From: a virus | DNA: 64,000 bases | UHGV virus genome: UHGV-1353844 | Strand: one strand, 5' to 3' | Position numbers and translations under genes: made by a program | The notes under the pieces: model-generated | Told to the model about the DNA's origin: nothing | Database searches by the model: none | What the model saw: only the letters and a program-made list of their open reading frames with translations | Shown: in pieces, positions 6,044 through 37,487 of the stretch | Layout: each line of letters opens with the position of its first letter | How positions within the stretch are numbered: the stretch's first letter is position 1

Positions 6044-6060
6044 GTTTCAGTTTCCTTGGG

Positions 6061-6097: not shown

Positions 6098-6574
6098 TCA
6101 CAGCCCTAAGTGCGTGAGTGATAAGATAGGCTGTGAGACACCCTGGATAGTAGCGTGGGAACGATACATTTCAGCGTTGGTTGAGAATACCTCGTTAGCG
6201 ATAATGCATTCACCCGTCTCTAAAGATAGGAGATAAATGTAATCGCTCCATACGCTTTGTACCAAGACCCACTCTAAGGATGGACCACAGTCTGATGTTG
6301 CTTGCAAATAGTGGAAATAAGGACGTATCGCATCCACCGCCGCATTAAAGCGACGATGATAAATTCGAGTTAAGTCAAACGACCAAATTGTTTCCAGATC
6401 AATAGGGCGTAAAGTACGCACGGTTTTGATAATAGTTTCCTGGTCGTTGTGTCGTGCTGCATCAGCAATCAATAACAGTTTCCAAGCCACCGTTAAGTTG
6501 TGGCGAATATACTCAGGCTTAGCCGTCAGTTCGTGATGGAATTGGGCCGCTTGATAAACATTAGATAAACGCAT
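6098..6574 (-). CDS. hypothetical protein
   Basis: 158-aa ORF flanked by hairpin terminators. Confidence 0.45.
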   Translation of the reverse strand: MRLSNVYQAAQFHHELTAKPEYIRHNLTVAWKLLLIADAARHNDQETIIKTVRTLRPIDLETIWSFDLTRIYHRRFNAAVDAIRPYFHYLQATSDCGPSLEWVLVQSVWSDYIYLLSLETGECIIANEVFSTNAEMYRSHATIQGVSQPILSLTHLGL

Positions 6575-20033: not shown

Positions 20034-20046
20034 GGAGAATTTTTTG

Positions 20047-23000: not shown

Positions 23001-24228
23001 TTCCCGTTCAGTTTCAGACGTTACTGACATTCCGTTGGTAATGGAAGAGTCTGGGGAAACAGCGGTGAATGCAACGTTTAAGGACGTGTTGTTCAACGGT
23101 GAAGAAACCAACCCCGCGATTCTCGATTTGATTGGCTGGGGTGCCACCCGAGATAAAATCTCTGCAAACCATGCACCTCGTGGGATGATTCGTTACCGTT
23201 ATAACGTAAGTACGCGTGTGTTACGTTTAGCGTTGTCGTTCTCGCAGTTTGGGACGACGACAGTTAAACAACGTCAATTGGAGATTCAATTCCCGTTTGA
23301 CTTGGTGGATTATTTCACCGGTGACGGAATAGGGTTGTCGTTTAAAGAACTGAGCGCGAAATGCCGAGTAACAATTAGCCACGCACTGATTGATCCGGTT
23401 ACGAACAACATCGACATTGATAAGTATCATTACTTACGTTCGTTGTTTGAGTCGTATTTGGATTCATCCGTTGGGTATTTGGCTGATAACAAAGACGCTG
23501 ATTATAGTCAGTCTGTGATTGACCCTGCGACTTATGAGATTAGTCAAAAATACCGTGCCACGGAGAGCATTGCCTTGCCAACTGGTCAGGGAAACGTTGC
23601 GGTTTCTCACGATGGGCAGTTACCTGCGCAGTTCTTTGATCGTAAGCTGTCTCGCGGTGCGCTGATGGCGAAGAAAAACGAACTGCATACTTCCTGGAAC
23701 AACGAGTGGAGTACGACTAAGGCTGCTGCAAGTCGTTATCGTCACAAACTCATTCTCCGTTTTGCACAAGGTGCCGATAAACAACAGTACCGAATTGCAA
23801 AAGTGTCAGGAACGATAAAAAGTAACTGGCCAGGTAAGGTGATTATCGGCGACGCAGGGAAAGACCCATTCTTAGCGTCTACTGATAGCGCAGAGTTTGC
23901 TCTGTCAACCAGTGCTGACGTAGGTAAAGCGATTAGTATCACGGCCACCGACTTACGTGTAGGTCAGGACATCTATATTGTCTTAGACCCGCCGGGTGAT
24001 AATCCCGAAGGTTACGAGCTTAACTTTACCTGTTCGTTAGACGTGACTGATGAGCAAAGCACTCGTCAGGATCAGCTTAATGCGCAGAGCTTCGAACTGC
24101 GTAGCGGTGAAAAGCAGTTCTTAATGGAGAAACGCAATCCGTACCATATCACGAGTAAAGCGTGGAAATGGATACTTTCTGTACTGAAACGTGAACTTAA
24201 CGGGAAGCAGTTAGGGGATCGTACTTAG
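20047..24228 (+). CDS. tail fibre protein (1393 aa) with shared N-terminal anchor module
   Basis: ATG at 20047 with AAGGAG SD (track starts at TTG 20044); N-terminal HRPFFEDLVV...GVDYEL module; canonical tail-fibre motifs ATTAEKGVVKLKT and ITKADLGLGQADNTADLDKPLSTAL. Confidence 0.65.
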   Translation: MKAYPYDPRGTKTENHFLEERIIGSENNNDRVVILDHRPFFEDLVVRQPGSTTPLSRGVDYELQYQLTELDDSVAANVYCGVHLINPSIKGIVTFEGQMLGGTFYDPFVDMLDELVKYLNNPVSADWLLLDGRPSLYPATPAATSWADLLNKKYLASAIHDIELKTDDANQLIKDKLAEVKALVAALGKEIEAFNYPAHIAATNPHETTSAQINAHPVNLKTPDTFMAYGLKLKALTEELKAFRLPQSVIDTYISHWISSEVRGVFNCTVSGNRAQFRSKNGESEIIFANDGFTLKSNGSVVLAVGHLEGTGAGRYINWRAGKNTLRIESTGDALGMNKLTLNGNPLLTTTALMEYQQDPDAGGSGGSDPDDSKVYIEGRNGISFTGKGSRADPIVGTIDPTKATTAEKGVVKLKTGKGTETVGVAATPASLTPYSTDLSGYVTKTTMINGKPMNDGSRTITKADLGLGQADNTADLDKPLSTALNASVSGLADVGHHHDWSELGIYKASQSIYGIGRYATNQNGLVENRAVVPNILKELSARLDVVAAAIANAKEGTVTDFAAVKGADWRFNSQGTSISVQDLKYFYLLDGTKGDSTVTGAIDLQTTPMFNWFSPNNQLELTWPTGKVSNGTGINWTGIEEPPLMGFQSVPVGKTATQMGDQSVVTVLAKTRVRAYQSKLWVYAAGGGPVTVYINGNLAASGESPLVAVYETSADVENYTIAVKAECSDTAKSAAVQFEVYDGDYPVYFSGPETRVELLQEFVTTHVGIRHYLYVNMLTGSLYSRAEPIQSIAVDPERGYIGYVDIVAGENYANKTVGFETTFDFGKSAEVSEHIDTRKAHGLSSVDWALTDNPRLPLLNRAIAEPRACIFRKALTAGTGDVFHLVSRGLYTYAHNQNVKSSLQYVVMPEGATPYCWFTPFNPKENNAPTFEGSFAFDVDDVGGTQALTAAPDLVLCTSTQGASVKRRYVRIDLTDKACKLGIGSRSVSDVTDIPLVMEESGETAVNATFKDVLFNGEETNPAILDLIGWGATRDKISANHAPRGMIRYRYNVSTRVLRLALSFSQFGTTTVKQRQLEIQFPFDLVDYFTGDGIGLSFKELSAKCRVTISHALIDPVTNNIDIDKYHYLRSLFESYLDSSVGYLADNKDADYSQSVIDPATYEISQKYRATESIALPTGQGNVAVSHDGQLPAQFFDRKLSRGALMAKKNELHTSWNNEWSTTKAAASRYRHKLILRFAQGADKQQYRIAKVSGTIKSNWPGKVIIGDAGKDPFLASTDSAEFALSTSADVGKAISITATDLRVGQDIYIVLDPPGDNPEGYELNFTCSLDVTDEQSTRQDQLNAQSFELRSGEKQFLMEKRNPYHITSKAWKWILSVLKRELNGKQLGDRT

Positions 24229-24322: not shown

Positions 24323-27300
24323 ATGCCGAGAGAAGACGCGGCGCAGTTTAACGGTACGCTAAGCACAGCGACGTACCCTAACCGATTTAACGTGGTCATT
24401 CCGCCTGAAGGACCTTTTTATCGTATCGGATTAAAACTCACAGTAGCCGACGATACCGCGCCTAACGGACGTCGTACTCTGATTGAGGGGTTGGACTACT
24501 ATTTAGGCTATTACTTTAAAGAACTCGCAGAAGCTGAACAAGATCAGATTTACGGCGGGTTTATGTTGCTTACTGCAACAGAAATCGAATATGAGATTTT
24601 AGGGGTAGCACGTCAATACCGTGTACCGCAATCTGAAATCGGGAAGTTCTTAGTTCGTACTGACCTGAAAGACCCACGTAACGTGGACTGGTCTGAACTA
24701 ATGGCGTATGCGCCGGTTATTCAGCCTATCGACCCGCCTGCTAACTTAGAAGAAGCGATTCTGAGGGATGAGGTTGTTAAGGCGTTAGAAGACATTCGCA
24801 AGAAAATCATCAAACGTTCTACGGAATTAGATGCTGCGTTCAGTGAAGTCACTAACTTGATTTACGAGAACGGTAAAAAGGTTTTCGACGAAGAGTTATA
24901 CCAGCATCACCGTAACCCTAACGCGCATCATTATACCACTGATGACATTGCTGCTCTCCCGGTATTAGGTCGTGCTGTTGACGCTACAAAAGCGTTTGGG
25001 TTGACGATTGACGAGTTGGCTACGCTGATGGGTTCAGCGGGTATTGAGCAATCGGACGTTGACCAGTTAATGGGTGAAGCCCTCGGCACCGTTTACGGTC
25101 GATGGGGTACCACGAACGGTAATGAATTAACGTTTAAAACGTCAGGTGGCCACATCATCAGTATTCGTGGTGATAAGTGGTTAATTACCTCGCCACAACC
25201 GTTGGTGATTAAAGCAGACCAGGACAACAACGAATCGGGTTTAGCGGTTGAATTCAGTGCGGGTCTGAATACGCTTTGGGTTCACTCGGGGTCGGAACAG
25301 GACGTATTAGCGCCAGTTTATAACTCCGTGTACCTGGTTACACCAGAAATGGTGAACATGTATCTGACGTCAGTAACGTTGCTTGAAGCAAACGCGTATT
25401 TCAAAGCGTCAGACACTGTAAAACCGTACGGTACCGCAAAACAGACTAACCCGGTTACGTTAAACGCGAATATTCCCACGGCGTCCGAATCAGTTTATGG
25501 GTTGTTCTCGATTACGAATATCTCTACGTCTGCGGCGTTAGGTACTGCTATCTCCCAGAAAGCTGTAACAGAATTAAAAGACCGCTTGGACTTGTACGTT
25601 GACGATGACTATACCGTTAACGGTAAAGGGTTTGTTAAAACAGGCGACAATATGGTGTTAACCTTAACGAAAACCGATTTCGGTATCGATAAGATGGATA
25701 ACACCATACCGAGTGATAAGCCTGTGACAAAAGCGTTAACGAACGTGTTGAAAAACAAGAGTTTGAAAACGCACACCCACACCACTGCTGACTTGGATAA
25801 CGTCCCGATTGGTAGTGCAACGGTTGACGGTATCTTACAGCTCTGGGATGCAATTGACACCACTAACGATAAAGCTGTCACGTCGCGTCAAGGCTGGTTG
25901 TTCGCAAAAGAGATTAAGAAGGTCTCTGATAAACTGAATACCATCTTACCGGCGTGGACGGTAGGTGGAGCGAAATTCGGTAACAAGAACTTCTTACCTA
26001 TCCCAGCGTTAGGTAACTACGCAGGCTATACCAAAAACCAGTCCTACCAGAAAGGGGTTGTTGGGTATCAGCAGGGTAAGGTTTATTCGCTCCGTAACGG
26101 TTCTAACGGCGTGCCGGGTACGGAAGCTATTTATTACGGCTATGCTGACATTGACACGTCAAACGCGTTTGTAAATCCGCAGCAGACCTCAGTGAAATAT
26201 CACCCTGCCGGGATGAGTAAATATCCTGGGGTGACCCTAATAGCGATATTGATCGGTGGCCAGGAAGCGATTATTTGCCTGGGTTCTGACAATAACCGTT
26301 ATTTGGTGCTGTTTAATGGCTCGATGGACCACACTAAGCACACGGTGGTATGTCGCGTTACGATGCCCGTGTACCGTAACGGCAACCCCAGTGGTACTGT
26401 GGAACAAACCTGGAACCCGTGGCCGGAAGCTGACGATGTCGTGTTGGTTGAGGACTACGTTTATCTTCTCCGTTCAACGGTAAATAACTCCGCTTACGCC
26501 GTAGCAGCTTGGCGTCTACGTAAGGCCGATTTGTCTACTAACACTACGTTAGAATTTGAACGTGTAACTCTAACCGGCGAGATGGGACAATTCGGAGATA
26601 ACCTCTGCTTGCGTATTGGTCAGAAAACCGAAGAGTCGCAAACGGGTCAATTCTTTACATATCTCACACCGGAGGGTCGTGCTAAATGGACGATCGGGCG
26701 TAACTTTGTTCACGGTCCAGAATGTAACCACGCGTGTGCTGTGCGCGATAGCGTGATTCGTGTGAACCATATGCCTACCGTGTGGTTTGCAGCGGCCGAC
26801 GGTACGACGATTAATTTCCTTCAATGGGCAACAAGTTTTACAATCGATACGTTGACGGGCAAGGTTACGTTAGAAGGCCGCGAACGCTTCCCCATCAAGG
26901 CTGATGCTACTACTACACTCTCGTTCGCAGATGGTTCAACTGTAGGAACCAATCGTAAGTGGGGTGGTGGCCAGGCAAACAACCGTTGTTTCGCGACGTA
27001 TGCTAAACCCAACGGTACAGGAATGATGCTTTCCTGTTGGCAAATTGCCGATGCGGACCAAATGCCTAATGTTTCTATTAAGAGTACACAAGGCAGAGAG
27101 CTTTTCGATTATCTGCGTTACGATAACCCAAACAACACCTCGGGCGAAGGAACGTTTACCTGGGATAAAGGCCGTGGCTCCATTTACACCATCGGTTTGT
27201 CTTATCCAGTAGGGATTGGTGGTTCGAATAAGGTCTGGTTATCGAACCCTCGTAACCGTTACACGATCGAAGTGGAAGTTGATCCGAACAAACCTTACGA

Positions 27301-29509
27301 TGTTTCTGGGTATAGTGGGTACGGTCCGAACAACAACCGTCGTGAAGTCGATCCAACGCTTTACGAGCAGCTTAGCTGTATGGCTGCGTGCATGATCCCT
27401 GAGGAGCGTCATGGACAGTTGAACGGCTGGTATTTGACCAAAGCAGAAACGTTCCCGTATCGTAACATCTACGGTAACTTCGCATTGTCTTCCGAACGCT
27501 TAACGCTAGAAGAAGCCGATCGGCAGAAAATGATTCGGATGATCGTTGACGGTGCGCCATCTGGTCAAGCAAATGGTTACGCGAACGAACGTATTAGTGC
27601 TGCACATCAAACCGGTAATGCATTGTTTGCTCTTTGGATGTTGGGTATCAACACCGTGTGCGAATTTGACTTGTTGCAAGTTTCGTGCATGAAAACCTCA
27701 AGTAACGGACGTCGAATTCTTGACATCTATTACTTCATGGTGAGCCCATCTAAAGAGAACGGCTACTTACGTTTCAACTCAGCCACCTTTAAGTTGGTGG
27801 ACTGGTTCTTAGACCTCGATTATGGTTTAAGTTATCAGTCACTAAATGGGGGAGCGGGAGGTAAAACGAGGCGCGTGGGGCAGCCTATTTTTGCATCTGC
27901 GGATGGAACTAACTTCGGTATCTGGTTACCTTATACGTTAACTACCCGAAATATCGGGGACTTAAACGCCCTGGGCTACGCTGCTAAATATACCTTCGAC
28001 CCTGGTTCAGGTTGGACACGCGTTGCAGGTAAATCACAGTTACGGCAGATGGCCCCTGAACATAGACCAGAATCTGGGTGCTATATGGGTGCCGGTGATT
28101 GGGACAAGATGGCGTTGATTTACTCTAAAGCTGACCGTGTTTTCTGTTCAGGTAACGCGTATACAGCCGCAGAGTTCGTTAACGACACGACGTTCTCAAC
28201 CGGAGGTCAGGCGGTTATTATTGCCGGTGTGGAAACAGCGGAAGGTTGGATTCTGTATTTGACAGAAGAAGTCAAATTAGATTTCGGTAGCAGCAGTTAC
28301 ACACTCCCAACGTGGTCTGTGGATTTAAGCAGTGAGTTCCCATCCAATCACGCTAACCAGACGTTCTACGTGCACGCTGAGGTGTCGGGTTCTACCGCGC
28401 AATACCGCATCGGTTTGGAGCAGTTAGCCGATACCTCAACAAGACTGTTCGTTGGGACAGTAACCACCGATTCCAGCCGTATTACTGGTATCAGTATCGA
28501 CAAAGTAAAACGTTTGGGTCGTGTGAAAGAACTGGAAGACCACGCAGCAATTATCGACCAACACGATGTAGCAGCAGCGTTTGACAGAAAGACGGGTCCT
28601 CTATTAACACTGGTTAACAAGCCCGTTAAAGCACCTACGGCGTCTGCGTCGAAAGGTGAAGGGTATGTTGACGGTCAGAAATGGGGTTCACTGTCCGGCA
28701 TTACGACGCGTCCTAAGTTACCAATTCAGGAAACGTATTCGGGTTATAAGAGCGTGGCCAGGGTAGCGTATGAGAACTGCGCTGACCAATTCTGGCAGAA
28801 AGCGGTAGCTGCTAACATTGCGACAGCCACTGCTTCTGAGAACATGCAGGCAGCGTCTGCGAACATGAAATGGATTGGTGCGTATACGAAACCGACTACC
28901 GGAACGAATGCTTACTTAGCATTGAGTTTGCGTGTTCAGGTGCCAGGTAATCCAGGAACGGCGAATCGTGCTCTGAAACTACGACTTGCTGCACCAACCG
29001 GTATTGTTGAAGCTCGGTATGCATTAAACCAGGCCGGTGGTACGATGACTGAACAAACGGTAACGTTAACCGCCAACCAGTACCTGGAAAAAGAGCACAG
29101 TGGGTTTAAACCTGCCGAGGAGGTTCGTGTTCATGTCACGTTCGTTATTCCGAAGAACGAGTATGAAAGTTATCGTACGAAGTTTGGGGCGGTACAGTTG
29201 ATTGACGTTGAATCGAACACCATCGTCAAGCAGGCTGATATCGACACACCGTTCTTTGTCTTTACGGACACTGAACTGGCTGCGCAATCTGGTTTGGTGT
29301 ATAAAGCGGTCAAGGGTCAGTTTGACAATCTCCCGAGTGAACCTACGCTCATTGTCCGAGATGGTCAGACCGGAACTAACCCACCGGTGAAATCGTCTTA
29401 CGCTAACGGTACGCTAACCGTTTACGTAGCGACCGCGTACGATGCCGTGAATCCGGCGGAAACTCGCGATATCGACAAACTCCAGTTCAATCTTATGTTT
29501 ACATCTTAA
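24323..29509 (+). CDS. tail fibre protein (1728 aa) with shared N-terminal anchor module
   Basis: AGGAG SD; N-terminal EGPFYRIGL...GLDYYL module; fibre motifs VYGLFSITNISTSAALGTAIS and DKMDNTIPSDKPVTKAL. Confidence 0.65.
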   Translation: MPREDAAQFNGTLSTATYPNRFNVVIPPEGPFYRIGLKLTVADDTAPNGRRTLIEGLDYYLGYYFKELAEAEQDQIYGGFMLLTATEIEYEILGVARQYRVPQSEIGKFLVRTDLKDPRNVDWSELMAYAPVIQPIDPPANLEEAILRDEVVKALEDIRKKIIKRSTELDAAFSEVTNLIYENGKKVFDEELYQHHRNPNAHHYTTDDIAALPVLGRAVDATKAFGLTIDELATLMGSAGIEQSDVDQLMGEALGTVYGRWGTTNGNELTFKTSGGHIISIRGDKWLITSPQPLVIKADQDNNESGLAVEFSAGLNTLWVHSGSEQDVLAPVYNSVYLVTPEMVNMYLTSVTLLEANAYFKASDTVKPYGTAKQTNPVTLNANIPTASESVYGLFSITNISTSAALGTAISQKAVTELKDRLDLYVDDDYTVNGKGFVKTGDNMVLTLTKTDFGIDKMDNTIPSDKPVTKALTNVLKNKSLKTHTHTTADLDNVPIGSATVDGILQLWDAIDTTNDKAVTSRQGWLFAKEIKKVSDKLNTILPAWTVGGAKFGNKNFLPIPALGNYAGYTKNQSYQKGVVGYQQGKVYSLRNGSNGVPGTEAIYYGYADIDTSNAFVNPQQTSVKYHPAGMSKYPGVTLIAILIGGQEAIICLGSDNNRYLVLFNGSMDHTKHTVVCRVTMPVYRNGNPSGTVEQTWNPWPEADDVVLVEDYVYLLRSTVNNSAYAVAAWRLRKADLSTNTTLEFERVTLTGEMGQFGDNLCLRIGQKTEESQTGQFFTYLTPEGRAKWTIGRNFVHGPECNHACAVRDSVIRVNHMPTVWFAAADGTTINFLQWATSFTIDTLTGKVTLEGRERFPIKADATTTLSFADGSTVGTNRKWGGGQANNRCFATYAKPNGTGMMLSCWQIADADQMPNVSIKSTQGRELFDYLRYDNPNNTSGEGTFTWDKGRGSIYTIGLSYPVGIGGSNKVWLSNPRNRYTIEVEVDPNKPYDVSGYSGYGPNNNRREVDPTLYEQLSCMAACMIPEERHGQLNGWYLTKAETFPYRNIYGNFALSSERLTLEEADRQKMIRMIVDGAPSGQANGYANERISAAHQTGNALFALWMLGINTVCEFDLLQVSCMKTSSNGRRILDIYYFMVSPSKENGYLRFNSATFKLVDWFLDLDYGLSYQSLNGGAGGKTRRVGQPIFASADGTNFGIWLPYTLTTRNIGDLNALGYAAKYTFDPGSGWTRVAGKSQLRQMAPEHRPESGCYMGAGDWDKMALIYSKADRVFCSGNAYTAAEFVNDTTFSTGGQAVIIAGVETAEGWILYLTEEVKLDFGSSSYTLPTWSVDLSSEFPSNHANQTFYVHAEVSGSTAQYRIGLEQLADTSTRLFVGTVTTDSSRITGISIDKVKRLGRVKELEDHAAIIDQHDVAAAFDRKTGPLLTLVNKPVKAPTASASKGEGYVDGQKWGSLSGITTRPKLPIQETYSGYKSVARVAYENCADQFWQKAVAANIATATASENMQAASANMKWIGAYTKPTTGTNAYLALSLRVQVPGNPGTANRALKLRLAAPTGIVEARYALNQAGGTMTEQTVTLTANQYLEKEHSGFKPAEEVRVHVTFVIPKNEYESYRTKFGAVQLIDVESNTIVKQADIDTPFFVFTDTELAAQSGLVYKAVKGQFDNLPSEPTLIVRDGQTGTNPPVKSSYANGTLTVYVATAYDAVNPAETRDIDKLQFNLMFTS

Positions 29510-29549
29510 TGACTCGAGACAAGGACGTCTCGAATAAAGGAGAGTGGCC

Positions 29550-30749
29550 ATGGCCTCCATTGTTTATCAATATCCTTTAGATTTAACGGGCTCGCTAACG
29601 TCTAACGCTGTAGAGCGTCAGATTACGTTAGGTACAGGTAAAGTAAACCGTGCTTTTGCTTTTCCTGACGGCCCGTTCTTTGCGGACACGTTCCGTTTAC
29701 GTGTTGCTAACCGACCGGATGCAACCTACGAACGTGGTACCGATTATGAGTTGATTTTTGCACACCCGACTTATGAAAAGCTGACTAAAAACCGCGAGAT
29801 TGTTATGGCGGTGGTGGTCACTAACACAGCGATTCCAACAGATATTACGGTATCTGCGCAGGTCGTTGGTGGTCCACAGTCTGCGAACATTGTGGCTATC
29901 GAACAGGCGATTGCTGAATTAAACCTCGATAACCGTACGATTGCGTTTAAAGACCTGCGTAACGTACCGGATACATTCCCATCTGCACCGACGTATAAAG
30001 ACGTGGGTGACATCTACGGTTTTGAATATATCATTACCGTATTGGCGGGTATTAAAGATGCGATCAGTTCCGGTGACGCGGTACAGTTAGAGAACATTAA
30101 AGCGATTTTAGAAAGCCTGAAAAATGACTTCTTAGACGCTTTAAATGCACACATCAACGCAACCGGTAACGTTCACCATCTTGATATTCATCAGGTTAAC
30201 GGGTTAACAGAAACTGAAATCCGTGCGCTTATTCGTGACGTCCAGTCTGCCATCGACGCAACGATTACGGAAATCAATGCACTGAAGAAAGCGGACGAAG
30301 CTTTAGGTAAGCGTATTGACGCTGTTGTCAACTCTCTGGAAGCGTGGAACGACCAACTTAACGTGGTTGCTCAAAACTACCAGAAAATGGCCTTAGCGTT
30401 AGCGAACCTGAACTCGTTAGTGTTACAACTGCAAAAGAGCATCAACGATTTAAACACAAAACTGAATCAGGTTATTCAGCGTGTTGCCGCGTTAGAGCAA
30501 CAGGGTCAAGAAACCGATCAGAAAATCGATCAGGTACAACAGAACCTGGATGCGCTTAAACAGCAAGTTAACAATAACACGAACGCAATCAGTCAAGCGA
30601 ACCAGAACCTACAAAACCACATCGCGGCAGATAACCCGCACACCGGTTATCTCCACAAGAGATACGGTGGTGTGGTTCAGGCCCCAGTACACGTTAACGC
30701 TAACCTGACGTCTCGTGATGACGTACAGGCGGAAGCGGGTACGAAATAA
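29550..30749 (+). CDS. fibre-associated protein (399 aa) with shared N-terminal module and C-terminal coiled coil
   Basis: ATG at 29550 with AAAGGAG SD (track starts at GTG 29544); N-terminal DGPFFADTFRL...GTDYEL; C-terminal half Q/N/L-rich heptads. Confidence 0.55.
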   Translation: MASIVYQYPLDLTGSLTSNAVERQITLGTGKVNRAFAFPDGPFFADTFRLRVANRPDATYERGTDYELIFAHPTYEKLTKNREIVMAVVVTNTAIPTDITVSAQVVGGPQSANIVAIEQAIAELNLDNRTIAFKDLRNVPDTFPSAPTYKDVGDIYGFEYIITVLAGIKDAISSGDAVQLENIKAILESLKNDFLDALNAHINATGNVHHLDIHQVNGLTETEIRALIRDVQSAIDATITEINALKKADEALGKRIDAVVNSLEAWNDQLNVVAQNYQKMALALANLNSLVLQLQKSINDLNTKLNQVIQRVAALEQQGQETDQKIDQVQQNLDALKQQVNNNTNAISQANQNLQNHIAADNPHTGYLHKRYGGVVQAPVHVNANLTSRDDVQAEAGTK

Positions 30750-30758
30750 TTTAATTAC

Positions 30759-30803
30759 AGGAGGAACTATGCTTATGGCTGGTTCCTCCTCTATTTTAAT
30801 TTT
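30759..30803 (+). terminator. terminator-like hairpin separating fibre module from Cys-repeat/radical-SAM operon
   Basis: AGGAGGAAC…GTTCCTCCT stem (13-nt loop) followed by CTATTTTAATTTT. Confidence 0.4.
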
Positions 30804-30814
30804 AAGGAAGCGTA

Positions 30815-31207
30815 ATGGCGATTAGTGTTAAACAAATGCGCGATCGGTTAACCACAGTAGAAAATACAGTCGCTACCGGCCCTCGTGTCAATGCGCAGGT
30901 CGCATCGAAAGCGCATAACGCGGCAGATTCGTTTTCCGGTTGGACGCCTTCGCGTTTAGACTGCGGAGGAGCGTGTTCGTGGACATGTTCTAACGGATGT
31001 ACTCACGGTTGCTCGAGCTGTTCAGGAAACTGTTCAGCGTCGTGCGTGGGTAGCTGCTCTTCGTCCTGTGGGGGCAACTGTTCGGGATGCTCTGGCTGCT
31101 CGGGGGCTTGTTCTAGCAGTTGTACAAGTACCTGTACTGGAAGTTGTACTGGGCGTTGTTCGCATAACTGTTCGGGTGCTTGCTCCGGCGGTTGCTCTGG
31201 TCGATAG
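30815..31207 (+). CDS. Cys-repeat protein 1 (130 aa): N-terminal leader-like region + (Cys-x3)n core; candidate radical-SAM substrate
   Basis: AAGGAAG SD; C-terminal ~80 aa has 20 Cys at almost strict 4-residue periodicity separated by S/G/T/A/N (…CSWTCSNGCTHGCSSCSGNCSASC…). Confidence 0.55.
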   Translation: MAISVKQMRDRLTTVENTVATGPRVNAQVASKAHNAADSFSGWTPSRLDCGGACSWTCSNGCTHGCSSCSGNCSASCVGSCSSSCGGNCSGCSGCSGACSSSCTSTCTGSCTGRCSHNCSGACSGGCSGR

Positions 31208-31216
31208 GGGGAAGAA

Positions 31217-31612
31217 ATGGCGGTTGGATTAGCTGAATTAGTAAGACGTCTTAATAACGTCGATAGTATCGCGCTGAAAAACACCACAGGTGTACAGAAC
31301 TACATCCGCAATAAGGCCACGAATAACGCGGACCTGTTCGGTGGTCGGAATCGTGCGCATTATGACTGTGCGGGCACGTGTTCCTTTACCTGCTCGAGTT
31401 GCTCTGGTGGCTGTACAGGGAACGCGTCTGGTGGTTGCGGTTCTTCATGCTCTGCAAACTGTACGTCAGGGTGTTCAAGTAGCTGTTCAGGGTGTTCGGG
31501 GAGTTGTTCGGGTGGGTGCGCTAATGCGTGCTCGGGCACTTGTACGGGCGGCTGTACAGCATCGTGCTCCAGTAGCTGTACCGGTGGCTGCTCGTCGTGC
31601 ACAGGACGATAG
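31217..31612 (+). CDS. Cys-repeat protein 2 (131 aa), paralog of 30815..31207
   Basis: Divergent N-terminal ~50 aa then (Cys-x3)n core (…CSFTCSSCSGGC…CSGSCSGGCANACSGTC…). Confidence 0.55.
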   Translation: MAVGLAELVRRLNNVDSIALKNTTGVQNYIRNKATNNADLFGGRNRAHYDCAGTCSFTCSSCSGGCTGNASGGCGSSCSANCTSGCSSSCSGCSGSCSGGCANACSGTCTGGCTASCSSSCTGGCSSCTGR

Positions 31613-31622
31613 GAGGTGAGAA

Positions 31623-31832
31623 GTGATTTCCCTCAAAAATATTCGAGACAGAATCGGTCAGGTTGAAGGCTACATTAAAACCACAGATGCGAATAACTAT
31701 ATTGCTAATCAGGGTACGGTGTCCTCAACGAATAACTTGGCAGGATTACCGTTAACTCACTATAACTGTAATGGGAGTTGTAGCTGGGCGTGCAGTGGTA
31801 GCTGTAGTAAAGGTGCAGGGGGAGGCAGGTAA
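31623..31832 (+). CDS. Cys-repeat protein 3 (69 aa), short paralog
   Basis: GTG start with AGGAGG SD; N-terminal region similar to the other two, short core CNGSCSWACSGSCS. Confidence 0.45.
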   Translation: MISLKNIRDRIGQVEGYIKTTDANNYIANQGTVSSTNNLAGLPLTHYNCNGSCSWACSGSCSKGAGGGR

Positions 31833-31953
31833 GTCTTCTGGTGGTGGTTCCATACCAAGCCCTTCGAAACCATCCTTGATAACAAAGCTGCTGTTTATGT
31901 TGGGTCTGAGCTAGACGCTAAAGATACTACCCGTGAAATAATTGGAGTAATCA

Positions 31954-32841
31954 ATGAAGAACGATCTACATCTTGCATATACGACAACGTTCAATCATCC
32001 ACTTCACATCTCTTCCCCTGATTCGGTACGTCACCATCTTGCTGATGATGTACGCTTAATTGCCATGATTCCTGGGGAATGGCCGAAAGTGCGTGGTCGT
32101 CATATCGCTAATCGTGACAACTTTACGGTTGAGAATACGTTCAAAATTCGTGATATGGTTGGCGAAAGCATCGTTGTCTTTACCGGTGACAACTCACAAC
32201 GCGGTAAACTTATCGACGGTAAATATTTCTTTAGCGACGGTGTGTTAAATAATACAGTTGACTTAGAACTTATGTTCACACCGTTTGAAGAACTCGATGC
32301 TAAACCAATGGCCCGTCGTTGGTGGAGTCCAGACTACCTGGGTGCGTTCCCTAACTATTACGCGTTGGTTGAAAAAGATACCAAAGAGTATTTTGATACG
32401 GAACCGTATATCGATATTGAAGGCTATCAAGAACTCGGAATTACGCATCTGGCCGACTTAATGGCGTACAGCTATAAGTTCGAATGGATTCGTGAACGTT
32501 CGGTTTGGAAAGCCATCACTGACGAACACGTGATTACGAAACGCATTCGTAAACCGTGGATGCAGCATATGGTTCAGGTACGTTTTGGTCAGAGCCCAGC
32601 TACCGAAGCGGACATTTCCAAACTCGTCAGCTTCTTGCTGTCGAAAGTTAAACTGACTGACGAAGAAGCCGAAGCAGTTAAGCCGATGCTTGACCGTGTT
32701 GTGACCTTAGAAGACCTCAAACGGATGAATAGCCGCTACAACGAACTTAACCGTTTACTGGAAGCGTATAATTCGCCACTGATTTTAAAACCCGGTGTTA
32801 ACTTCGACGAAGATCCTTTATTCGCCATCGATTATATTTAA
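31954..32841 (+). CDS. hypothetical protein in radical-SAM operon
   Basis: 295 aa; GGAG SD; between Cys-repeat genes and radical SAM genes. Confidence 0.5.
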   Translation: MKNDLHLAYTTTFNHPLHISSPDSVRHHLADDVRLIAMIPGEWPKVRGRHIANRDNFTVENTFKIRDMVGESIVVFTGDNSQRGKLIDGKYFFSDGVLNNTVDLELMFTPFEELDAKPMARRWWSPDYLGAFPNYYALVEKDTKEYFDTEPYIDIEGYQELGITHLADLMAYSYKFEWIRERSVWKAITDEHVITKRIRKPWMQHMVQVRFGQSPATEADISKLVSFLLSKVKLTDEEAEAVKPMLDRVVTLEDLKRMNSRYNELNRLLEAYNSPLILKPGVNFDEDPLFAIDYI

Positions 32842-32861
32842 AAATACTGGAGCAACCTGCA

Positions 32862-33779
32862 ATGATAGACAATGTGGAATCCAGGATCTCGACGAAGTTG
32901 TACGATAAACCCACTATATTGTCCGTAGTTACGACGTCTAAGTGTAACCTAGACTGTAGTTTCTGCGGTGGAGCCTACTACATGAATCGTGAAGATTCGT
33001 CTCGTGCTTTTCAACGCGAACGTATCCTGGAATTACTACAAGAGAATCCAGCTATTAAGGAAATACATTGGACGGGTGGTGAACCGCTACTCGTCCAACG
33101 TAAGATTGAGGATTTCGTTAACGAACTGAAAGTGTCTCATCCGCACCTTGAGCATCACTTGTATACCAACGGCTTAAAACTGCGTAAATCGCATCTTACG
33201 CTGCTAAAAGACTTTGAGCATGTGTTTGTATCAATTGATGGCTACAAACGTTCTGAGCGCCCTTTTATGCGCTTTATTGAAGAGGATAGCCACGAAGCAC
33301 TGGAAGCGTTATACGAACTCGATAACTTCCAAACCTGGGCTGTGATTACGCGTGACCAGTTAGCCGATAAGCGCTGGTATGAAGATATTGTGGATTTACA
33401 TCGTGCGATGTACCACTATCGTCCCCGTGCGTTTTCTCTGATGTTTGATGCCCAAATGCCAAAACCGTTGTCTCCCGATCACATCATGAACTTCGTTTAT
33501 GGTTATTTAAAGATTCAGGAGAATATGGAACGGCTGAACGTCCAAACCGGAGAATCGTGCGGCGTGTCTGTCAGCAAGATTTTCGAAAACGAGTGTAATG
33601 TCTGTAGCGAAGAGTTGTATTTGAACGCAGATGGAACAGAACATCAGCTTCAGAATGCACCGGCTATCTTAAACGGTGGGTGCAATCAGCTTGCTTGCTC
33701 TATCGGGGTAGGTGCTTACGAGTACATTAAACGCGTGATTTATGCAGAGCGTAAAAGGATAAGCAAAGATGAGCAATAA
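32862..33779 (+). CDS. radical SAM enzyme
   Basis: CxxxCxxC cluster (SKCNLDCSFCGG) at residues ~27-34; GGE motif (WTGGEPLL); additional C-terminal Cys pairs (CNVCSEE…CNQLAC). Confidence 0.7.
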   Translation: MIDNVESRISTKLYDKPTILSVVTTSKCNLDCSFCGGAYYMNREDSSRAFQRERILELLQENPAIKEIHWTGGEPLLVQRKIEDFVNELKVSHPHLEHHLYTNGLKLRKSHLTLLKDFEHVFVSIDGYKRSERPFMRFIEEDSHEALEALYELDNFQTWAVITRDQLADKRWYEDIVDLHRAMYHYRPRAFSLMFDAQMPKPLSPDHIMNFVYGYLKIQENMERLNVQTGESCGVSVSKIFENECNVCSEELYLNADGTEHQLQNAPAILNGGCNQLACSIGVGAYEYIKRVIYAERKRISKDEQ

Positions 33780-35103
33780 TGAAGCACCACGTTCACAACG
33801 TACTTACCAGGTGGTAACGAACCTGTCTTGTAACTTAGACTGTGAGTATTGTTACGAACGTAAGTATCCGCGTAATAACAAAGCGGCGGATATCGTGGAT
33901 TTCTTACACGCCTGTTTTGAGCGTGATAAAGATATTCCGAACATCGACGTCATTATTGATATCATCGGCGGCGAACCTTTTATGCAACCGAAACTGCTGT
34001 TAGCGGCGTTTGAAACCGCAGAACAGTTGTGTAAGGAGCATAATCGACCGTATATGTTCAGTATCTCCACGAACGGGACGTTGTTAGACCGTCCGTTAAA
34101 CCGTGAGATCGTCGAGCGTTGGAAAGACAAACTCTCCATCGGTGTGTCTATCGACGGGCTGCCAGAAGTCCATGACCGTTATCGTATCTTTACCACGACG
34201 CGTCAGGGTTCTTACGAAGCCGCTGTTCGTGGCTATAACTACTTAAAAGAAGTGGGTATTGCTGAACTGGGTATCAAGGCAACCTTTACAACCGAAACCC
34301 TCCCGCATTACGCGGCGAGTATGAAGTCGTTAATCGATATTGCGGGTGGTGGTACGATTTCGGGTAACGTGACGTACGAAGATATCCTTCCACGGAGCAT
34401 GGCAACGGATATTGCGTTGCAGATGATCGAGGTGATGGATTATTGGATTGAGAAAGGGCTGCACACCAATCCACGTAACGTGTTGTCCCACATCATTCCT
34501 GAAGGTCTGGATTTCCGTCAGATTTGGGACCCAGATTGGCGTGATAAACTGCTGTACGACGACACGCACCGTTATAACCCTGAACGTTTACGTCCGTTCT
34601 GTGGGACGTTGACGTTTATGACTTGTTTAGGTTTTGACCGTAAGGTGTATGGTTGTAACCGATTCATGTCAACGGTAACGTCACGCTCTGCGGTGTTTGA
34701 GTTAGTCGGTCGTGAGTTTGTTAGCTTAGACGGCGGGAAACTGCTGGAAGAGATTCAGACGCAATACACCAACTATCCTGAAACGTGCTTAGGTTGTCCG
34801 ATGAAACACGGTTGTGGGAGCTGTGCAGCTGCTTCCTACGAAAACGGTGAAGGGACACTGGAAGACCGTAAGGCGTACCACGCTGAACGACGTCAATGTG
34901 GTTGGACGACCGCAAAACTGATGGCGGCAGAATACTGGCGTCAACGTACAGGCACCGTCCACGCATCGTCACTGCACGATTCGTCTGTTTGTTACTGTCC
35001 GAAATGTACGCGTGAGCGTGAGCAAGCTAAACGTGCGTTAAATGCACAACCTACTGAGGCAAATAATGAAATCAATTCTGATCCACAATTTTACGAAGCG
35101 TAA
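33769..35103 (+). CDS. radical SAM/SPASM-domain enzyme (peptide-maturase-like)
   Basis: CNLDCEYC near N-terminus, GGEP motif, C-terminal Cys-rich SPASM-like cluster (CLGCPMKHGCGSC…); 11-nt overlap with the preceding radical SAM gene. Confidence 0.7.
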   Translation: MSNNEAPRSQRTYQVVTNLSCNLDCEYCYERKYPRNNKAADIVDFLHACFERDKDIPNIDVIIDIIGGEPFMQPKLLLAAFETAEQLCKEHNRPYMFSISTNGTLLDRPLNREIVERWKDKLSIGVSIDGLPEVHDRYRIFTTTRQGSYEAAVRGYNYLKEVGIAELGIKATFTTETLPHYAASMKSLIDIAGGGTISGNVTYEDILPRSMATDIALQMIEVMDYWIEKGLHTNPRNVLSHIIPEGLDFRQIWDPDWRDKLLYDDTHRYNPERLRPFCGTLTFMTCLGFDRKVYGCNRFMSTVTSRSAVFELVGREFVSLDGGKLLEEIQTQYTNYPETCLGCPMKHGCGSCAAASYENGEGTLEDRKAYHAERRQCGWTTAKLMAAEYWRQRTGTVHASSLHDSSVCYCPKCTREREQAKRALNAQPTEANNEINSDPQFYEA

Positions 35104-35632
35104 ACTCCACCTGGTTGAGCGTTTTCTGCGCAAACACAAACTCTATAACGTTCACGCCATTATCCCTGGTGAAGACTTTACAGATGAGATTAAACCTCTG
35201 TTGATTAAGTACGGGCTAAACGTGATGATTCCCGTTTACTGTACAGAGACAGGCCATGAGTCCGTTGTGGAAATCGAAAAACGTAATCCGGGTTTCGAAC
35301 AACGCGTACTGGATTACCCACGCCACAAGATCGAATTGCTTCGTTATTCTGCGGAGAATCCGAGTAGCGCATCTATTGCTGCATTAGCGGTGTCTTTCCC
35401 GCGTCTGCCAATCCGTTGCTTGCGTTCTACGTCTATCTACGATGCTTATTACGTAGAGCATCAGACGTTCAACGAAAATGTGTTACCACAGTTAACGGAT
35501 GAAGAACGCGACATTGCAAACGTGGTGTGGTCAAACGATCTCTCTGAAACCTTCCAGTTGGTTGATTTTGGCTTGCTGCAAGAATTAGGTATGGTTGGAG
35601 AAGAAGAATGTCTGCTTCTAACAAAAGCTTAA
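35066..35632 (+). CDS. hypothetical protein in radical-SAM operon
   Basis: Start moved to ATG at 35066 (GAGG SD) rather than 35042. Confidence 0.4.
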   Translation: MKSILIHNFTKRKLHLVERFLRKHKLYNVHAIIPGEDFTDEIKPLLIKYGLNVMIPVYCTETGHESVVEIEKRNPGFEQRVLDYPRHKIELLRYSAENPSSASIAALAVSFPRLPIRCLRSTSIYDAYYVEHQTFNENVLPQLTDEERDIANVVWSNDLSETFQLVDFGLLQELGMVGEEECLLLTKA

Positions 35633-36282
35633 CGAAAGAAGAGATTCGGGCGCGTTATTTCGCGCACGATCTGCCAATTGACCGCCACGGTAACTACATG
35701 GAACGTGTAGGTAACGAAGACCGTGGTCGTACGGGGTTCTGTGCATTACTGCACTATAAGTTGATTGAAGGGATGAGTGATGAAGAAGCTTTAGCTCAGA
35801 TGCAAACTTACGAAATGTCTCCTATTGAGGCGAAGTTTACACTGAACAAAGCAAAAGAATTCATTACTGACGTTCTGGAGATTAACCTGGACGAGATTCG
35901 TTCGAATATGCGCTCGACGTCTCGCTATATCTATTTAGATATCCAGAAAATCATGTTGGAAATTGAACACCGATACGAAGACCAGCGTCACGGTTATATC
36001 GAAGTTGACGGCCATCATTTCCAAGCGGATGAAACCTCTCGTCAGATGCTGGGTCAATATATCCAGTCTGAAACTGCACCGGATTATTGGCTGGACACGT
36101 CGAATACACGTATAGAACCGTTTACGCTGGAGCAATGTAAAGCGTTAATGGCGGCTATTGTGAAACGTGACCAACAGCTACACAACGCGATGTCTGCCCA
36201 GAAAAGTGAAATTCGTCAGTACGCCGAACAGCGTGACTACGACACGATCCGTGCACTTGCGCTGGAAATGGGATTAGAATAA
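35608..36282 (+). CDS. hypothetical protein, last gene of radical-SAM operon
   Basis: 224 aa; GGAG SD; followed by bidirectional terminator. Confidence 0.5.
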   Translation: MSASNKSLTKEEIRARYFAHDLPIDRHGNYMERVGNEDRGRTGFCALLHYKLIEGMSDEEALAQMQTYEMSPIEAKFTLNKAKEFITDVLEINLDEIRSNMRSTSRYIYLDIQKIMLEIEHRYEDQRHGYIEVDGHHFQADETSRQMLGQYIQSETAPDYWLDTSNTRIEPFTLEQCKALMAAIVKRDQQLHNAMSAQKSEIRQYAEQRDYDTIRALALEMGLE

Positions 36283-36286
36283 AAAA

Positions 36287-36329
36287 TACCTACCTCCGTA
36301 AAGGAGGTAGGTAAACTTATTATTTTTTG
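36287..36329. terminator. bidirectional rho-independent terminator
   Basis: TACCTACCTCC-GTAAA-GGAGGTAGGTA flanked by A-run upstream and T-run downstream; between convergent genes. Confidence 0.65.
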
Positions 36330-36350: not shown

Positions 36351-36881
36351 TTAAGCAGTAAAACCGTCCAATTCACCGTCGGTGGTGGCCAGGTCAATAC
36401 GATTATCGACTACCTTCGGTGTAATTACGAAAGTTGCCATTACACCCGGTTTATAACGGAGGTTCTGTTCAGTAACGGTGCATGTCACGGTACGCAGAGT
36501 GACGTTTTCATGTTCGTCTTTCTGGTCTTCGGTGCTGTACACAACGTCACCTGGCGCGATAGCGTCGTCAGGTTTTACTTTGTTGATGTATAGCTGTAAC
36601 CAAGCGCGGAGTTCATTTTCTTGAACCCAACGAGACAGATCGTCAGTTAGTTCAATCCGTCCTACAACACCCGGCTCCAGACGATCGTAATGCAGTTCGA
36701 TTTCGCCTTTGAAATTCTCAGAACCCGGTAGTGCGGTCATGGTAACTTTGGTATTCTTACTTTCGCCTTCCAGCGCAGTAGGGAGACCAAAGGACACTTC
36801 TTTATCTGTAATCTGATGCGGTAGCTCAGCGTTAGCAGCATTATAAAGCGCGACCAACATCATCTGGTTAGTAGCGGCCAT
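36351..36881 (-). CDS. hypothetical protein, paralog pair (C-terminus ...ELDGFTA)
   Basis: 176 aa; shares N-terminal pattern and C-terminal GELDGFTA with 36951..37487. Confidence 0.5.
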   Translation of the reverse strand: MAATNQMMLVALYNAANAELPHQITDKEVSFGLPTALEGESKNTKVTMTALPGSENFKGEIELHYDRLEPGVVGRIELTDDLSRWVQENELRAWLQLYINKVKPDDAIAPGDVVYSTEDQKDEHENVTLRTVTCTVTEQNLRYKPGVMATFVITPKVVDNRIDLATTDGELDGFTA

Positions 36882-36950: not shown

Positions 36951-37487
36951 TTAGCCACCGACACCCGGTGCAGTGAAGCCATCAAGTTCACCTTCCAGAC
37001 CGCTCAGCGCTACCTTCTCAGGAGCTGGGTTGGAATAAGTGAAGGTGGCAATAGTACCAGCCAGGAATTTAATGTGTGCATCGTTTACTTTGACAGTGTA
37101 AACTTTAGCACCACTATCCCCGTCAGTTTTCTCAATGGTCAGTTCGCTTTCAGCGAAATAGTCATCGACATAACCTTTAGTAACCATTTCTTCGTTCAGT
37201 TTGGTTACAATGGCAGAGTTTTCCAGATCGAGGCTACCGGCTTTTTCGTAAGCTTTGGCACCGATCAGGTCTTGAGAAGCCAGACGAATGTAGTGGAATT
37301 CTTTCTCGCCTTTGAAGTTCTGGCTTTCTGCCTTGGCGGTCAGCGTAATTTTGGTGTTACGACCACCGGTACCGCTGTGCGCTTCGACAGCACCAAAATC
37401 GACATCATCAACCGTCAGATTAGAAGCGGTTCCTGGGTTTTTAGCAATTACAGCTTCGACGAACTGCAGTTTGAAGGTTTTAGCCAT
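36951..37487 (-). CDS. hypothetical protein, paralog pair (C-terminus ...ELDGFTAPGVGG)
   Basis: 178 aa paralog. Confidence 0.5.
   Translation of the reverse strand: MAKTFKLQFVEAVIAKNPGTASNLTVDDVDFGAVEAHSGTGGRNTKITLTAKAESQNFKGEKEFHYIRLASQDLIGAKAYEKAGSLDLENSAIVTKLNEEMVTKGYVDDYFAESELTIEKTDGDSGAKVYTVKVNDAHIKFLAGTIATFTYSNPAPEKVALSGLEGELDGFTAPGVGG

Follow-up and report, generated by a model that had tools for sequence, protein, structure and literature searches.

Why would a phage keep enzymes of the kind that mature peptides inside a block of tail-fibre genes? The question is raised by a stretch of 64,000 nucleotides of the UHGV virus genome UHGV-1353844 (hereafter the window), in which a unit of eight plus-strand genes lies between two terminator-like hairpins (positions 30,759 to 36,329). 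The unit encodes three small cysteine-repeat proteins (A, B and a shorter paralogue), a 295-residue protein, two radical S-adenosylmethionine (rSAM) enzymes, a short one (rSAM1) and a long one (rSAM2), and two further proteins (Table 1). A preliminary description of this locus had left open whether it was a protein-crosslinking system or one resembling those that make peptides synthesized on ribosomes and modified after translation (RiPPs). The kinship of the enzymes with peptide maturases held, and the links with tail fibres favour a structural protein over a secreted RiPP. The reading towards which we lean is that the unit would use its rSAM enzymes to mature structural proteins associated with the fibres, and not a secreted peptide, by covalent modification, probably thioether cross-linking.

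The connection with tail fibres comes from the relatives of the system. Homologues of rSAM2 with 28–40% identity are found in quite different phage backbones, and at every such locus that was inspected at the sequence level a short rSAM, a protein of 250–295 residues and a substrate with the Cys motif adjoin one another. In a P2-like prophage of Campylobacter pinnipediorum (L008), the Cys motif forms the C-terminus of the tail fibre itself (CNGCSGSCSGSCSSGCTACSGCSGSC; ...GCNGCSGSCSGSCSSGCTACSGCSGSCSGK...; PF12571, E 1.8e-40), and the fibre is followed by a 250-residue protein and two rSAMs placed between the baseplate and the sheath/tube genes. A GpJ-type prophage of Deferribacter abyssi (L007) has a Cys-x3 C-terminus of about 100 residues on a 302-residue protein with phage-tail repeats, with the accessory protein and two rSAMs downstream. 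In a 213-kb viral contig (L020) the motif is the C-terminus of a 568-residue fibre-like protein, which it joins through the junction motif FYTCGGSCSWSC, and in a 115-kb metagenome scaffold (L091) a fibre-like protein adjacent to an rSAM ends in CSDCSDCSDYCSDDHC. A 169-kb contig from a bacterial metagenome-assembled genome (L090), with phage-tail-like neighbours, has an uncalled 76-residue Cys-x3 open reading frame (ORF) that begins before a T7-tail-fibre-like gene has ended, overlapping its stop codon, and a tail assembly chaperone gene is found downstream. The small proteins of the window align with the fibre-like C-termini of L020 and L007 at the junction motif [F/L]xGxxxxx[Y/L]xCxGxCS[W/F]xC. 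Altogether, at least four independent lineages have the Cys repeat at the C-terminal end of a long protein that is a fibre or resembles one.

The association between enzyme and repeat was counted over 83 loci with relatives of rSAM2, of which 80 are viral contigs and 3 are in prophages, a Cys run being defined as at least five consecutive Cys-x2-3 units. An ORF with such a run was present on the same strand in 78 of these loci (compare with 3 of 60 control loci carrying other rSAM/SPASM families). The control loci, drawn from bacterial genomes among the matches listed, resemble rSAM2 in no part but the N-terminal rSAM core and thus belong to other maturase families. Where the rSAM gene was placed in viral loci, 100 Cys runs lay at most 3 kb from it and 6 lay farther away. 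The annotated PHROG matches of the non-redundant genes just upstream of Cys-repeat genes are mostly tail or tail-fibre proteins, with one head-tail adaptor, and none of these neighbours matches a non-structural PHROG category.

In the window, the genes just ahead of the unit are the counterparts of gp168 and gp167 of Salmonella phage SPN3US, inside a fibre/baseplate gene block. The profile matched by the second of these, phrog_2163, is also matched by the tail fibre upstream of the Cys-repeat gene in another locus (L023). The preliminary description had put the unit immediately downstream of the tail-fibre module; the position was correct, but it is not incidental and turns out to be the key clue, the repeat standing within or directly after tail-fibre proteins in unrelated phages. 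Homologous clusters in other phages had been envisaged as well, and the enzyme trio was indeed found in unrelated prophages. Because the repeat is fused or adjacent to fibres in unrelated phages, a cross-linked structural protein is favoured over a secreted RiPP. We offer more tentatively, as possible, the wider proposal that radical SAM enzymes covalently cross-link tail-fibre proteins in virions and that the orphan CXXX-repeat family is a widespread fibre-hardening module of myo-, sipho- and jumbo phages. Such cross-linking would be a kind of post-translational modification not known before in viral structural proteins, and the module would let phages make disulfide-like ladders within the reducing cytoplasm.

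What are the proteins on which these enzymes would act? Taken together, the three Cys ORFs contain 42 Cys intervals, 35 of which are x3, 6 are x2 and one is x7. In the two long proteins 32 of the 39 spacings are x3 (17 of 20 in A, 15 of 19 in B) and the first Cys is residue 50 or 51; the position after the Cys (+1) is mainly Ser or Thr and the next one (+2) mainly Gly, and the Cys cores contain no Asp or Glu and hardly any Lys or Arg. Protein A is built of a 49-residue N-terminal region followed by the 21-Cys core, and the 69-residue paralogue has an N-terminal region and a junction like those of A and B, with only four Cys. The N-terminal region of about 50 residues is leader-like: it is conserved and has two weakly predicted helices, the only elements that AlphaFold2 proposed for protein A from an 11-sequence alignment (predicted local distance difference test score, pLDDT, of 46). 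Six-frame translation of the whole window gave no further Cys runs outside the three ORFs.

The number of Cys is 20–21 in both long proteins across three phage genera (the window and L001–L005), and the intervening residues vary freely, which suggests selection on the number of repeats and hence on length. In protein A all 21 Cys are conserved in the three genera. The N-terminal half of protein B is conserved in 55 phage records, and the 69-residue paralogue in SPN3US and Erwinia phages. With the TIGR04114 repeat model (cutoff 20 bits), A and B both score slightly under the cutoff (19.5 and 17.6 bits) and the 69-residue ORF is unmatched; a Pfam search with the Cys ORFs gave nothing at E ≤ 0.1, and several weak homologues carry the PF27846 label.

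The coding status of these ORFs was assessed from their substitution pattern. Compared with SPN3US, nucleotide differences at the three codon positions number 27, 17 and 74, with proportions of synonymous and nonsynonymous differences (pS and pN) of 0.74 and 0.16. Between SPN3US and an Erwinia phage, the ratio of nonsynonymous to synonymous rates (dN/dS) comes to about 0.06 when the ORFs are read as proposed. Of the other five frames, four give values above 1, and the antisense frame that has the third codon positions in common gives 0.19. By these measures the Cys ORFs are coding and under strong purifying selection. The alternative-frame ORFs that GenBank records place over them were rejected, with dN/dS above 1. 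One of these calls is gp166 of SPN3US (L001, 4097–5126), which lies in the wrong frame over the second Cys ORF; in Erwinia phage pEa_SNUABM_29 (L002, 4963–5985) two opposite-strand ORFs are called at the Cys genes, and in many public records nothing is annotated in the region. In the SPN3US record the three ORFs are at about 143.4–144.3 kb. A search with ORF A against 5.8 billion predicted proteins returned eight relatives only, ORF A itself being missing from the set, and tblastn with the N-domain of a Branch A Cys protein against isolate phages gave one unannotated metagenomic record. Since the Cys ORFs are unannotated, the proteome papers on SPN3US could not have detected their products.

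The long enzyme, rSAM2, has its best NCBIfam match with TIGR04115, the radical SAM peptide maturase of the CXXX-repeat target family (124.8 bits, E 5.6e-36), in two stretches of which the better covers residues 16–233. The second-best family is the ranthipeptide maturase PapB (NF047865, 110.8 bits, E 7.5e-32), and further matches are to geopeptide, HxsB, SCIFF, anaerobic sulfatase and QhpD-type maturases. Among solved structures rSAM2 has a single relative by sequence, 5wgg (E 1.3e-12), which we take to be the SCIFF thioether-forming maturase CteB. The placement of rSAM2 near the peptide maturases in the preliminary description is thereby upheld, the CXXX-repeat target family, PapB and CteB being the closest. 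In 20 homologues down to 27% identity, C21/C25/C28, C286, C296, C340, C343, C349, C352 and C377 are invariant, C278 is conserved in at least 90%, and the GGE motif is invariant or nearly so. The C-terminal eight-Cys pattern reads C278, C286, C296, C340-x2-C343-x5-C349-x2-C352, C377; its last spacing is x2, compared with x3 in the SPASM motif (CX9-15GX4C ... CX2CX5CX3C ... C). We regard this pattern as SPASM-like, and cluster binding by it is predicted. Two radical SAM enzymes, the second of SPASM type, had been claimed: both do match the Pfam Radical_SAM model and the eight-Cys pattern is there, but the Pfam SPASM model itself does not match.

The short enzyme, rSAM1, matches only generic rSAM cores in NCBIfam (tungsten-cofactor maturase, MoaA, HxsC, QueE and NrdG; 39–51 bits, first ~110 residues). 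In alignment A4 its invariant residues are C28/C32/C35 (CX3CX2C), G72–P75 (GGEP) and two C-terminal Cys, C245 and C274, and it is homologous to the short rSAM of Deferribacter (E 1e-13). Natural fusions of a short and a long rSAM exist (P0101, 668 residues; P0102, 634 residues) and speak for joint action of the pair. On the contig of P0102, a 570-residue protein with a faint PF27846 match and a 221-residue protein are encoded directly upstream of the fusion. In SPN3US the short rSAM is gp164 (L001, 6058–6972), whose full ORF starts at 6058 and encodes 304 residues; the RefSeq start at 6178 lies past the CX3CX2C motif, so the annotated protein is without the SAM-cluster Cys. The 295-residue accessory protein is homologous to the 250-residue proteins of Deferribacter (E 6e-12) and Campylobacter (E 0.002), and its fold has no solved relative.

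How might these parts work together? From sequence we infer that the Cys repeats are rSAM substrates, that the chemistry forms thioethers and that the product ends up within the virion. The three small proteins, each with an N-terminal region of about 50 residues and a (Cys-x3)n core, would be substrates of both rSAMs, which would work with the 295-residue accessory protein. The CX3CX2C cluster of rSAM2 would bind SAM and its additional SPASM-like Cys would hold auxiliary Fe-S clusters; the enzyme would then abstract a hydrogen atom from the substrate and bond a Cys sulfur to a peptide carbon, creating a thioether bridge. Because only the Cys are conserved and the cores have no Asp or Glu, the acceptor is most likely a backbone alpha-carbon, as in sactionines, or a neighbouring Cys, and less likely one particular side chain; across the wider family the X positions of the repeat accept almost any residue. 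The outcome would be a ladder of covalent cross-links formed in the reducing cytoplasm, where disulfides cannot form, and the products would be rigid, protease-resistant elements of fixed length that attach to the fibres or assemble with them and are not exported. Speculatively, the conserved Cys number and the three conserved paralogues hint at a defined, possibly three-chain assembly.

Several points weigh against this reading. The modification of the Cys proteins and their place in the virion are predictions from sequence, and the proposed mechanism does not account for the presence of rSAM1. Both family scores of rSAM2 are under the respective cutoffs (124.8 against 350 bits for TIGR04115 and 110.8 against 340 bits for PapB), the Pfam SPASM model is unmatched by it at E ≤ 0.1, and AlphaFold2 gives no confident structure for the Cys core at the pLDDT quoted above. 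In the wider family, some 50% of the genes upstream of the repeat are without an annotated PHROG match. In a 279-kb jumbo viral contig (L022) the system is not adjacent to fibre genes; it is a minimal version, whose 97-residue substrate ends in CESCAMGCHGPQ and resembles the 69-residue paralogue of the window. Finally, each Cys repeat of the window stands on a small protein of its own whose N-terminus is leader-like, a layout classic for RiPPs. Taken at face value, this layout would make the small ORFs leader-core precursors, cross-linked by the rSAMs, whose leader is cut by a host or unknown protease and which lysis sets free to serve as toxins, signals or anti-defence factors, the place beside fibre genes reflecting only where accessory "moron" genes are prone to insert. 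Small multi-copy precursors upstream of rSAM/SPASM enzymes, the leader-like conservation of the N-terminal 50 residues, the fact that the closest enzyme families are all RiPP maturases and the distance of the minimal L022 version from fibre genes all agree with a phage RiPP. We nevertheless find it unlikely: the repeat forms fibre or fibre-like C-termini in the lineages described above, the Cys number is fixed, the Pfam, NCBIfam and PHROG matches of the unit include no peptidase or other protease, exporter or immunity gene, and the unit, unlike a moron, is a conserved syntenic part of the structural block (five genomes, with the long rSAM in 62 records).

The fibre context could also fit a transient device, in which the Cys repeat, with or without a metal or Fe-S cluster, and the 295-residue protein chaperone the trimerisation of the fibre and are then discarded or cleaved, much as intramolecular chaperone domains and fibre chaperones of the gp38/gp57A type do in other phages. 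The genes occupy the usual position of a fibre chaperone, after the P2-type H in L008, genes of the Phage_tail_APC or "tail assembly chaperone" kind are near in L090 and in Erwinia phages, and one neighbouring protein has a Peptidase_G2 IMC autocleavage domain. Two dedicated rSAMs and up to 250 repeat residues would be costly for a throwaway part, and no cleavage site or protease was identified, so we hold this to be quite unlikely. It is highly improbable that the parts are unrelated, with the rSAMs being metabolic enzymes of the QueE, MoaA or NrdG kind and the Cys ORFs unmodified metal-binding proteins or non-coding. The top NCBIfam matches of rSAM1 do include tungsten-cofactor maturase, MoaA, QueE and NrdG, and the pair is labelled albA and moaA in one phage record; those matches fall far below their cutoffs (131–380 bits) over the N-terminal stretch given above, the co-occurrence of rSAM and Cys repeat differs sharply between relatives and controls (78/83 and 3/60), the Cys ORFs are under strong purifying selection and rSAM1 occurs fused to rSAM2. 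A full-length match to QueE, MoaA or NrdG, as the preliminary description had anticipated for an unrelated enzyme, is absent: rSAM1 scores 39–48 bits against cutoffs of 131–284 over approximately residues 17–132. Each of the three identities was rejected for rSAM1, the matches being confined to the N-terminal core (MoaA, 47.5 bits against a cutoff of 284; QueE, 40.8 against 260; NrdG, 39.3 against 131).

Is the system new? The CXXX-repeat target system (TIGR04114/04115/04117 and PF27846) likewise consists of proteins with a Cys at every fourth residue adjoining a radical SAM/SPASM maturase, and in the window, too, the enzyme is accompanied by CXXX-repeat ORFs, three in number, on the same strand and 0.9–2 kb upstream. 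Scores of 428–455 bits, above the TIGR04115 cutoff, are reached by more distant viral relatives such as L025, L034 and L069, which have similar substrates; these loci have a single longer rSAM and Cys-repeat proteins of 65–940 residues. In contrast with the single-enzyme TIGR04115 loci examined, the window has an extra short rSAM and the accessory protein of 250–295 residues. The window belongs to a sister branch with paired rSAMs and an accessory protein, which by score stands between TIGR04115 and PapB; the long rSAM of Deferribacter scores 163 with PapB and 155 with TIGR04115. The pairing of CXXX repeat and rSAM/SPASM enzyme is thus already catalogued in NCBIfam and Pfam, and its product, chemistry and role are unpublished in the literature searched. 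Full-text searches, in which subscription journals are thinly covered so that absence is not proof, gave no paper on CXXX-repeat systems, TIGR04114-6 or PF27846 and none that ties radical SAM/SPASM enzymes to tail fibres. The combination had been described as unrecognised, which holds for the papers found but not for these family catalogues. What sets the unit apart is the pair of rSAMs, the new accessory protein and the previously unremarked tail-fibre context.

Four further comparisons help to place the system. PapB, which makes freyrasin, and CteB have an rSAM/SPASM architecture, which that of rSAM2 resembles, both with scores below cutoff. PapB forms one thioether per C-x3-D unit, an equal four-residue spacing; the cores of the window are without Asp or Glu, so the acceptor must differ from that of PapB. 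PapB and CteB act on short peptides, whereas the candidate substrates here are proteins of 69–131 residues and those of the relatives fibre or fibre-like proteins of 300–940 residues. QhpD, also of the rSAM/SPASM kind, cross-links QhpC internally through Cys thioethers, and QhpC stays within a larger assembly, the quinohemoprotein amine dehydrogenase. The QhpD family is among the matches of rSAM2 and its relatives, with weak similarity (55 bits, cutoff 453), and QhpC, unlike the Cys proteins of the window, has Asp/Glu acceptors and is neither repetitive nor viral. The His-Xaa-Ser system also combines two different rSAMs with a substrate of short repeat period and one more protein (HxsB, TIGR03978, against rSAM2, 74.4 bits with a cutoff of 370; HxsC, TIGR03977, against rSAM1, 47.2 with a cutoff of 267.9), but its repeat is not present in the window, where the repeat is Cys-x3, and it is itself uncharacterised. 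On the phage side, T4 gp38 and gp57A, P2 gpG, C-terminal intramolecular chaperones and the His-Fe tips of T4 gp37 serve to give stable, correctly assembled fibres. Their position directly after the fibre gene is the same and the presumed purpose is alike, but they act by non-covalent chaperoning, autoproteolysis or metal coordination, and none is known to use radical SAM chemistry.

We know of no earlier case of a virion structural protein matured by radical SAM chemistry. If the reading towards which we lean is true, this would be the first, and it would explain how covalent cross-links can be installed before the protein leaves the reducing cytoplasm. The catalogued, uncharacterised pair of TIGR04114/04115 and PF27846 would also gain a biological role. 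Genome-mining tools likely score this pair as RiPP or ranthipeptide clusters, and some "natural product" clusters may then be prophage tail modules. Fibre engineering, heterologous expression of fibres and host-range swaps would in that case fail without the maturases and a functioning Fe-S supply. Most public records either lack the substrate genes or call them in a wrong frame, a systematic annotation gap, and proteomic studies could for this reason not have seen their proteins. SPN3US-like jumbo phages are model systems (PMC5105663).

How general is the cassette among the nearest relatives? The region has 73–75% DNA identity with SPN3US and with related Erwinia, Escherichia and Proteus jumbo phages, and the window is from an SPN3US-like jumbo phage of Salmonella. 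In SPN3US numbering the unit is gp161–gp166, downstream of gp168 and gp167, the latter annotated as a virion structural protein. SPN3US gp168 has been described as a tail (baseplate/fibre) protein of a paralogue family related to phiKZ gp131 (PMC5105663), and in the SPN3US papers found mention of these genes is confined to gp168. The long rSAM was found in 64 of 50,697 phage records, in 62 of them at 80% coverage or more; these 62 belong to Salmonella, Erwinia, Escherichia, Cronobacter, Proteus or Enterobacteria phages, that is, to the jumbo clade. Five genomes from three genera (Seoulvirus, Erskinevirus and Derbicusvirus) were inspected, and all have the complete cassette in synteny; it seems to be core rather than accessory in the SPN3US-like jumbo clade. 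Proteins identical to rSAM2 (P0001; 33,769–35,103) are recorded for several serovars of Salmonella enterica, Chester among them, on contigs of ~226–244 kb, which indicates jumbo-phage genomes inside bacterial genome assemblies. In the phages SPFM1, 8, 9, 10, 14, 15 and 20 (P0081–P0083, P0087, P0161–P0165), the long rSAM and the gene for the 295-residue protein are fragmentary or frame-broken, with high bit scores and just 5–20% BLAST coverage; these broken genes are probably assembly frameshifts rather than biology.

Table 1. Features of the unit and its immediate context in the window. Lengths are in amino acids (aa); hairpin z scores compare the fold energy with that of shuffled sequence.
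Feature	Position	Strand	Support
Context: 1728-aa baseplate/fibre protein, gp168 counterpart	24323..29509	+	ORF; synteny with SPN3US
Context: 401-aa virion structural, fibre-like protein with coiled coil	29544..30749	+	phrog_2163, E 7e-103; weaker tail-fibre PHROG matches
Terminator-like hairpin with U-rich tract; ends the upstream gene and opens the unit	30759..30790	+	-19.8 kcal/mol, z -5.2
Cys-x3 repeat protein A, 130 aa, 21 Cys; proposed substrate	30815..31207	+	phrog_6085, E 1.6e-36
Cys-x3 repeat protein B, 131 aa, 20 Cys; paralogue of A	31217..31612	+	phrog_6085, E 1.6e-42
Short paralogue, 69 aa, GTG start, 4 Cys (CNGSCSWACSGSC)	31623..31832	+	phrog_6085, E 1.6e-25
295-aa accessory protein, core partner of the rSAM pair	31954..32841	+	
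rSAM1, short radical SAM, 305 aa; CNLDCSFC, GGEP	32862..33779	+	PF04055, E 8e-15
rSAM2, long radical SAM enzyme, SPASM-like, of the peptide-maturase kind, 444 aa; CNLDCEYC, GGEP and a Cys cluster at the C-terminus	33769..35103	+	Pfam Radical_SAM, E 5e-14
196-aa protein, function unassigned, jumbo-clade-specific	35042..35632	+	phrog_7988, E 1e-77
224-aa DUF4376 protein, clade-specific	35608..36282	+	PF14301, E 5.8e-11; phrog_8169
Perfect 11-bp hairpin with convergent genes on both sides, bidirectional terminator-like	36287..36313	.	-20.4 kcal/mol, z -6.1

As Table 1 indicates, the eight plus-strand ORFs, both hairpins, the three paralogous small ORFs with their (Cys-x3)n cores and the radical SAM motifs were all recovered where the preliminary description had them. 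Its view of an eight-gene unit was correct in that all eight genes are present, but counterparts exist in other lineages for six only, namely the three substrates, the accessory protein and the two rSAMs. The last two genes, for the 196-residue and DUF4376 proteins, are specific to the jumbo-phage clade. The 196-residue gene is syntenic across Seoulvirus, Erskinevirus and Derbicusvirus, and, compared by size only, a counterpart is absent downstream of the rSAM pair in the prophage versions; the start of this ORF is uncertain because the phrog_7988 match begins at residue 9. The DUF4376 protein has weak similarity to phrog_2837 (tail protein) and phrog_1807 (tail fiber protein).

Some minor observations concern the surroundings of the system. 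In L022 (3133–5862 and 5883–9074) the minimal system is found beside a 909-residue SNF2-like helicase with an apparent intein-like insert (motifs CICDIDHLW ... VTHNT). The Campylobacter phages CP220 and CPt10 carry 11–12 radical SAM genes, which were read as metabolic boosters by the authors (PMC2853527). In the window, three giant plus-strand ORFs stand in a row directly upstream of the unit (15,711–20,033, 20,044–24,228 and 24,323–29,509; 1440, 1394 and 1728 residues). Beyond the unit, two adjacent paralogues on the minus strand (36,351–36,881, 176 residues, and 36,951–37,487, 178 residues) both terminate in GELDGFTA, and the 176-residue protein has a weak match to "virion structural protein" PHROGs.

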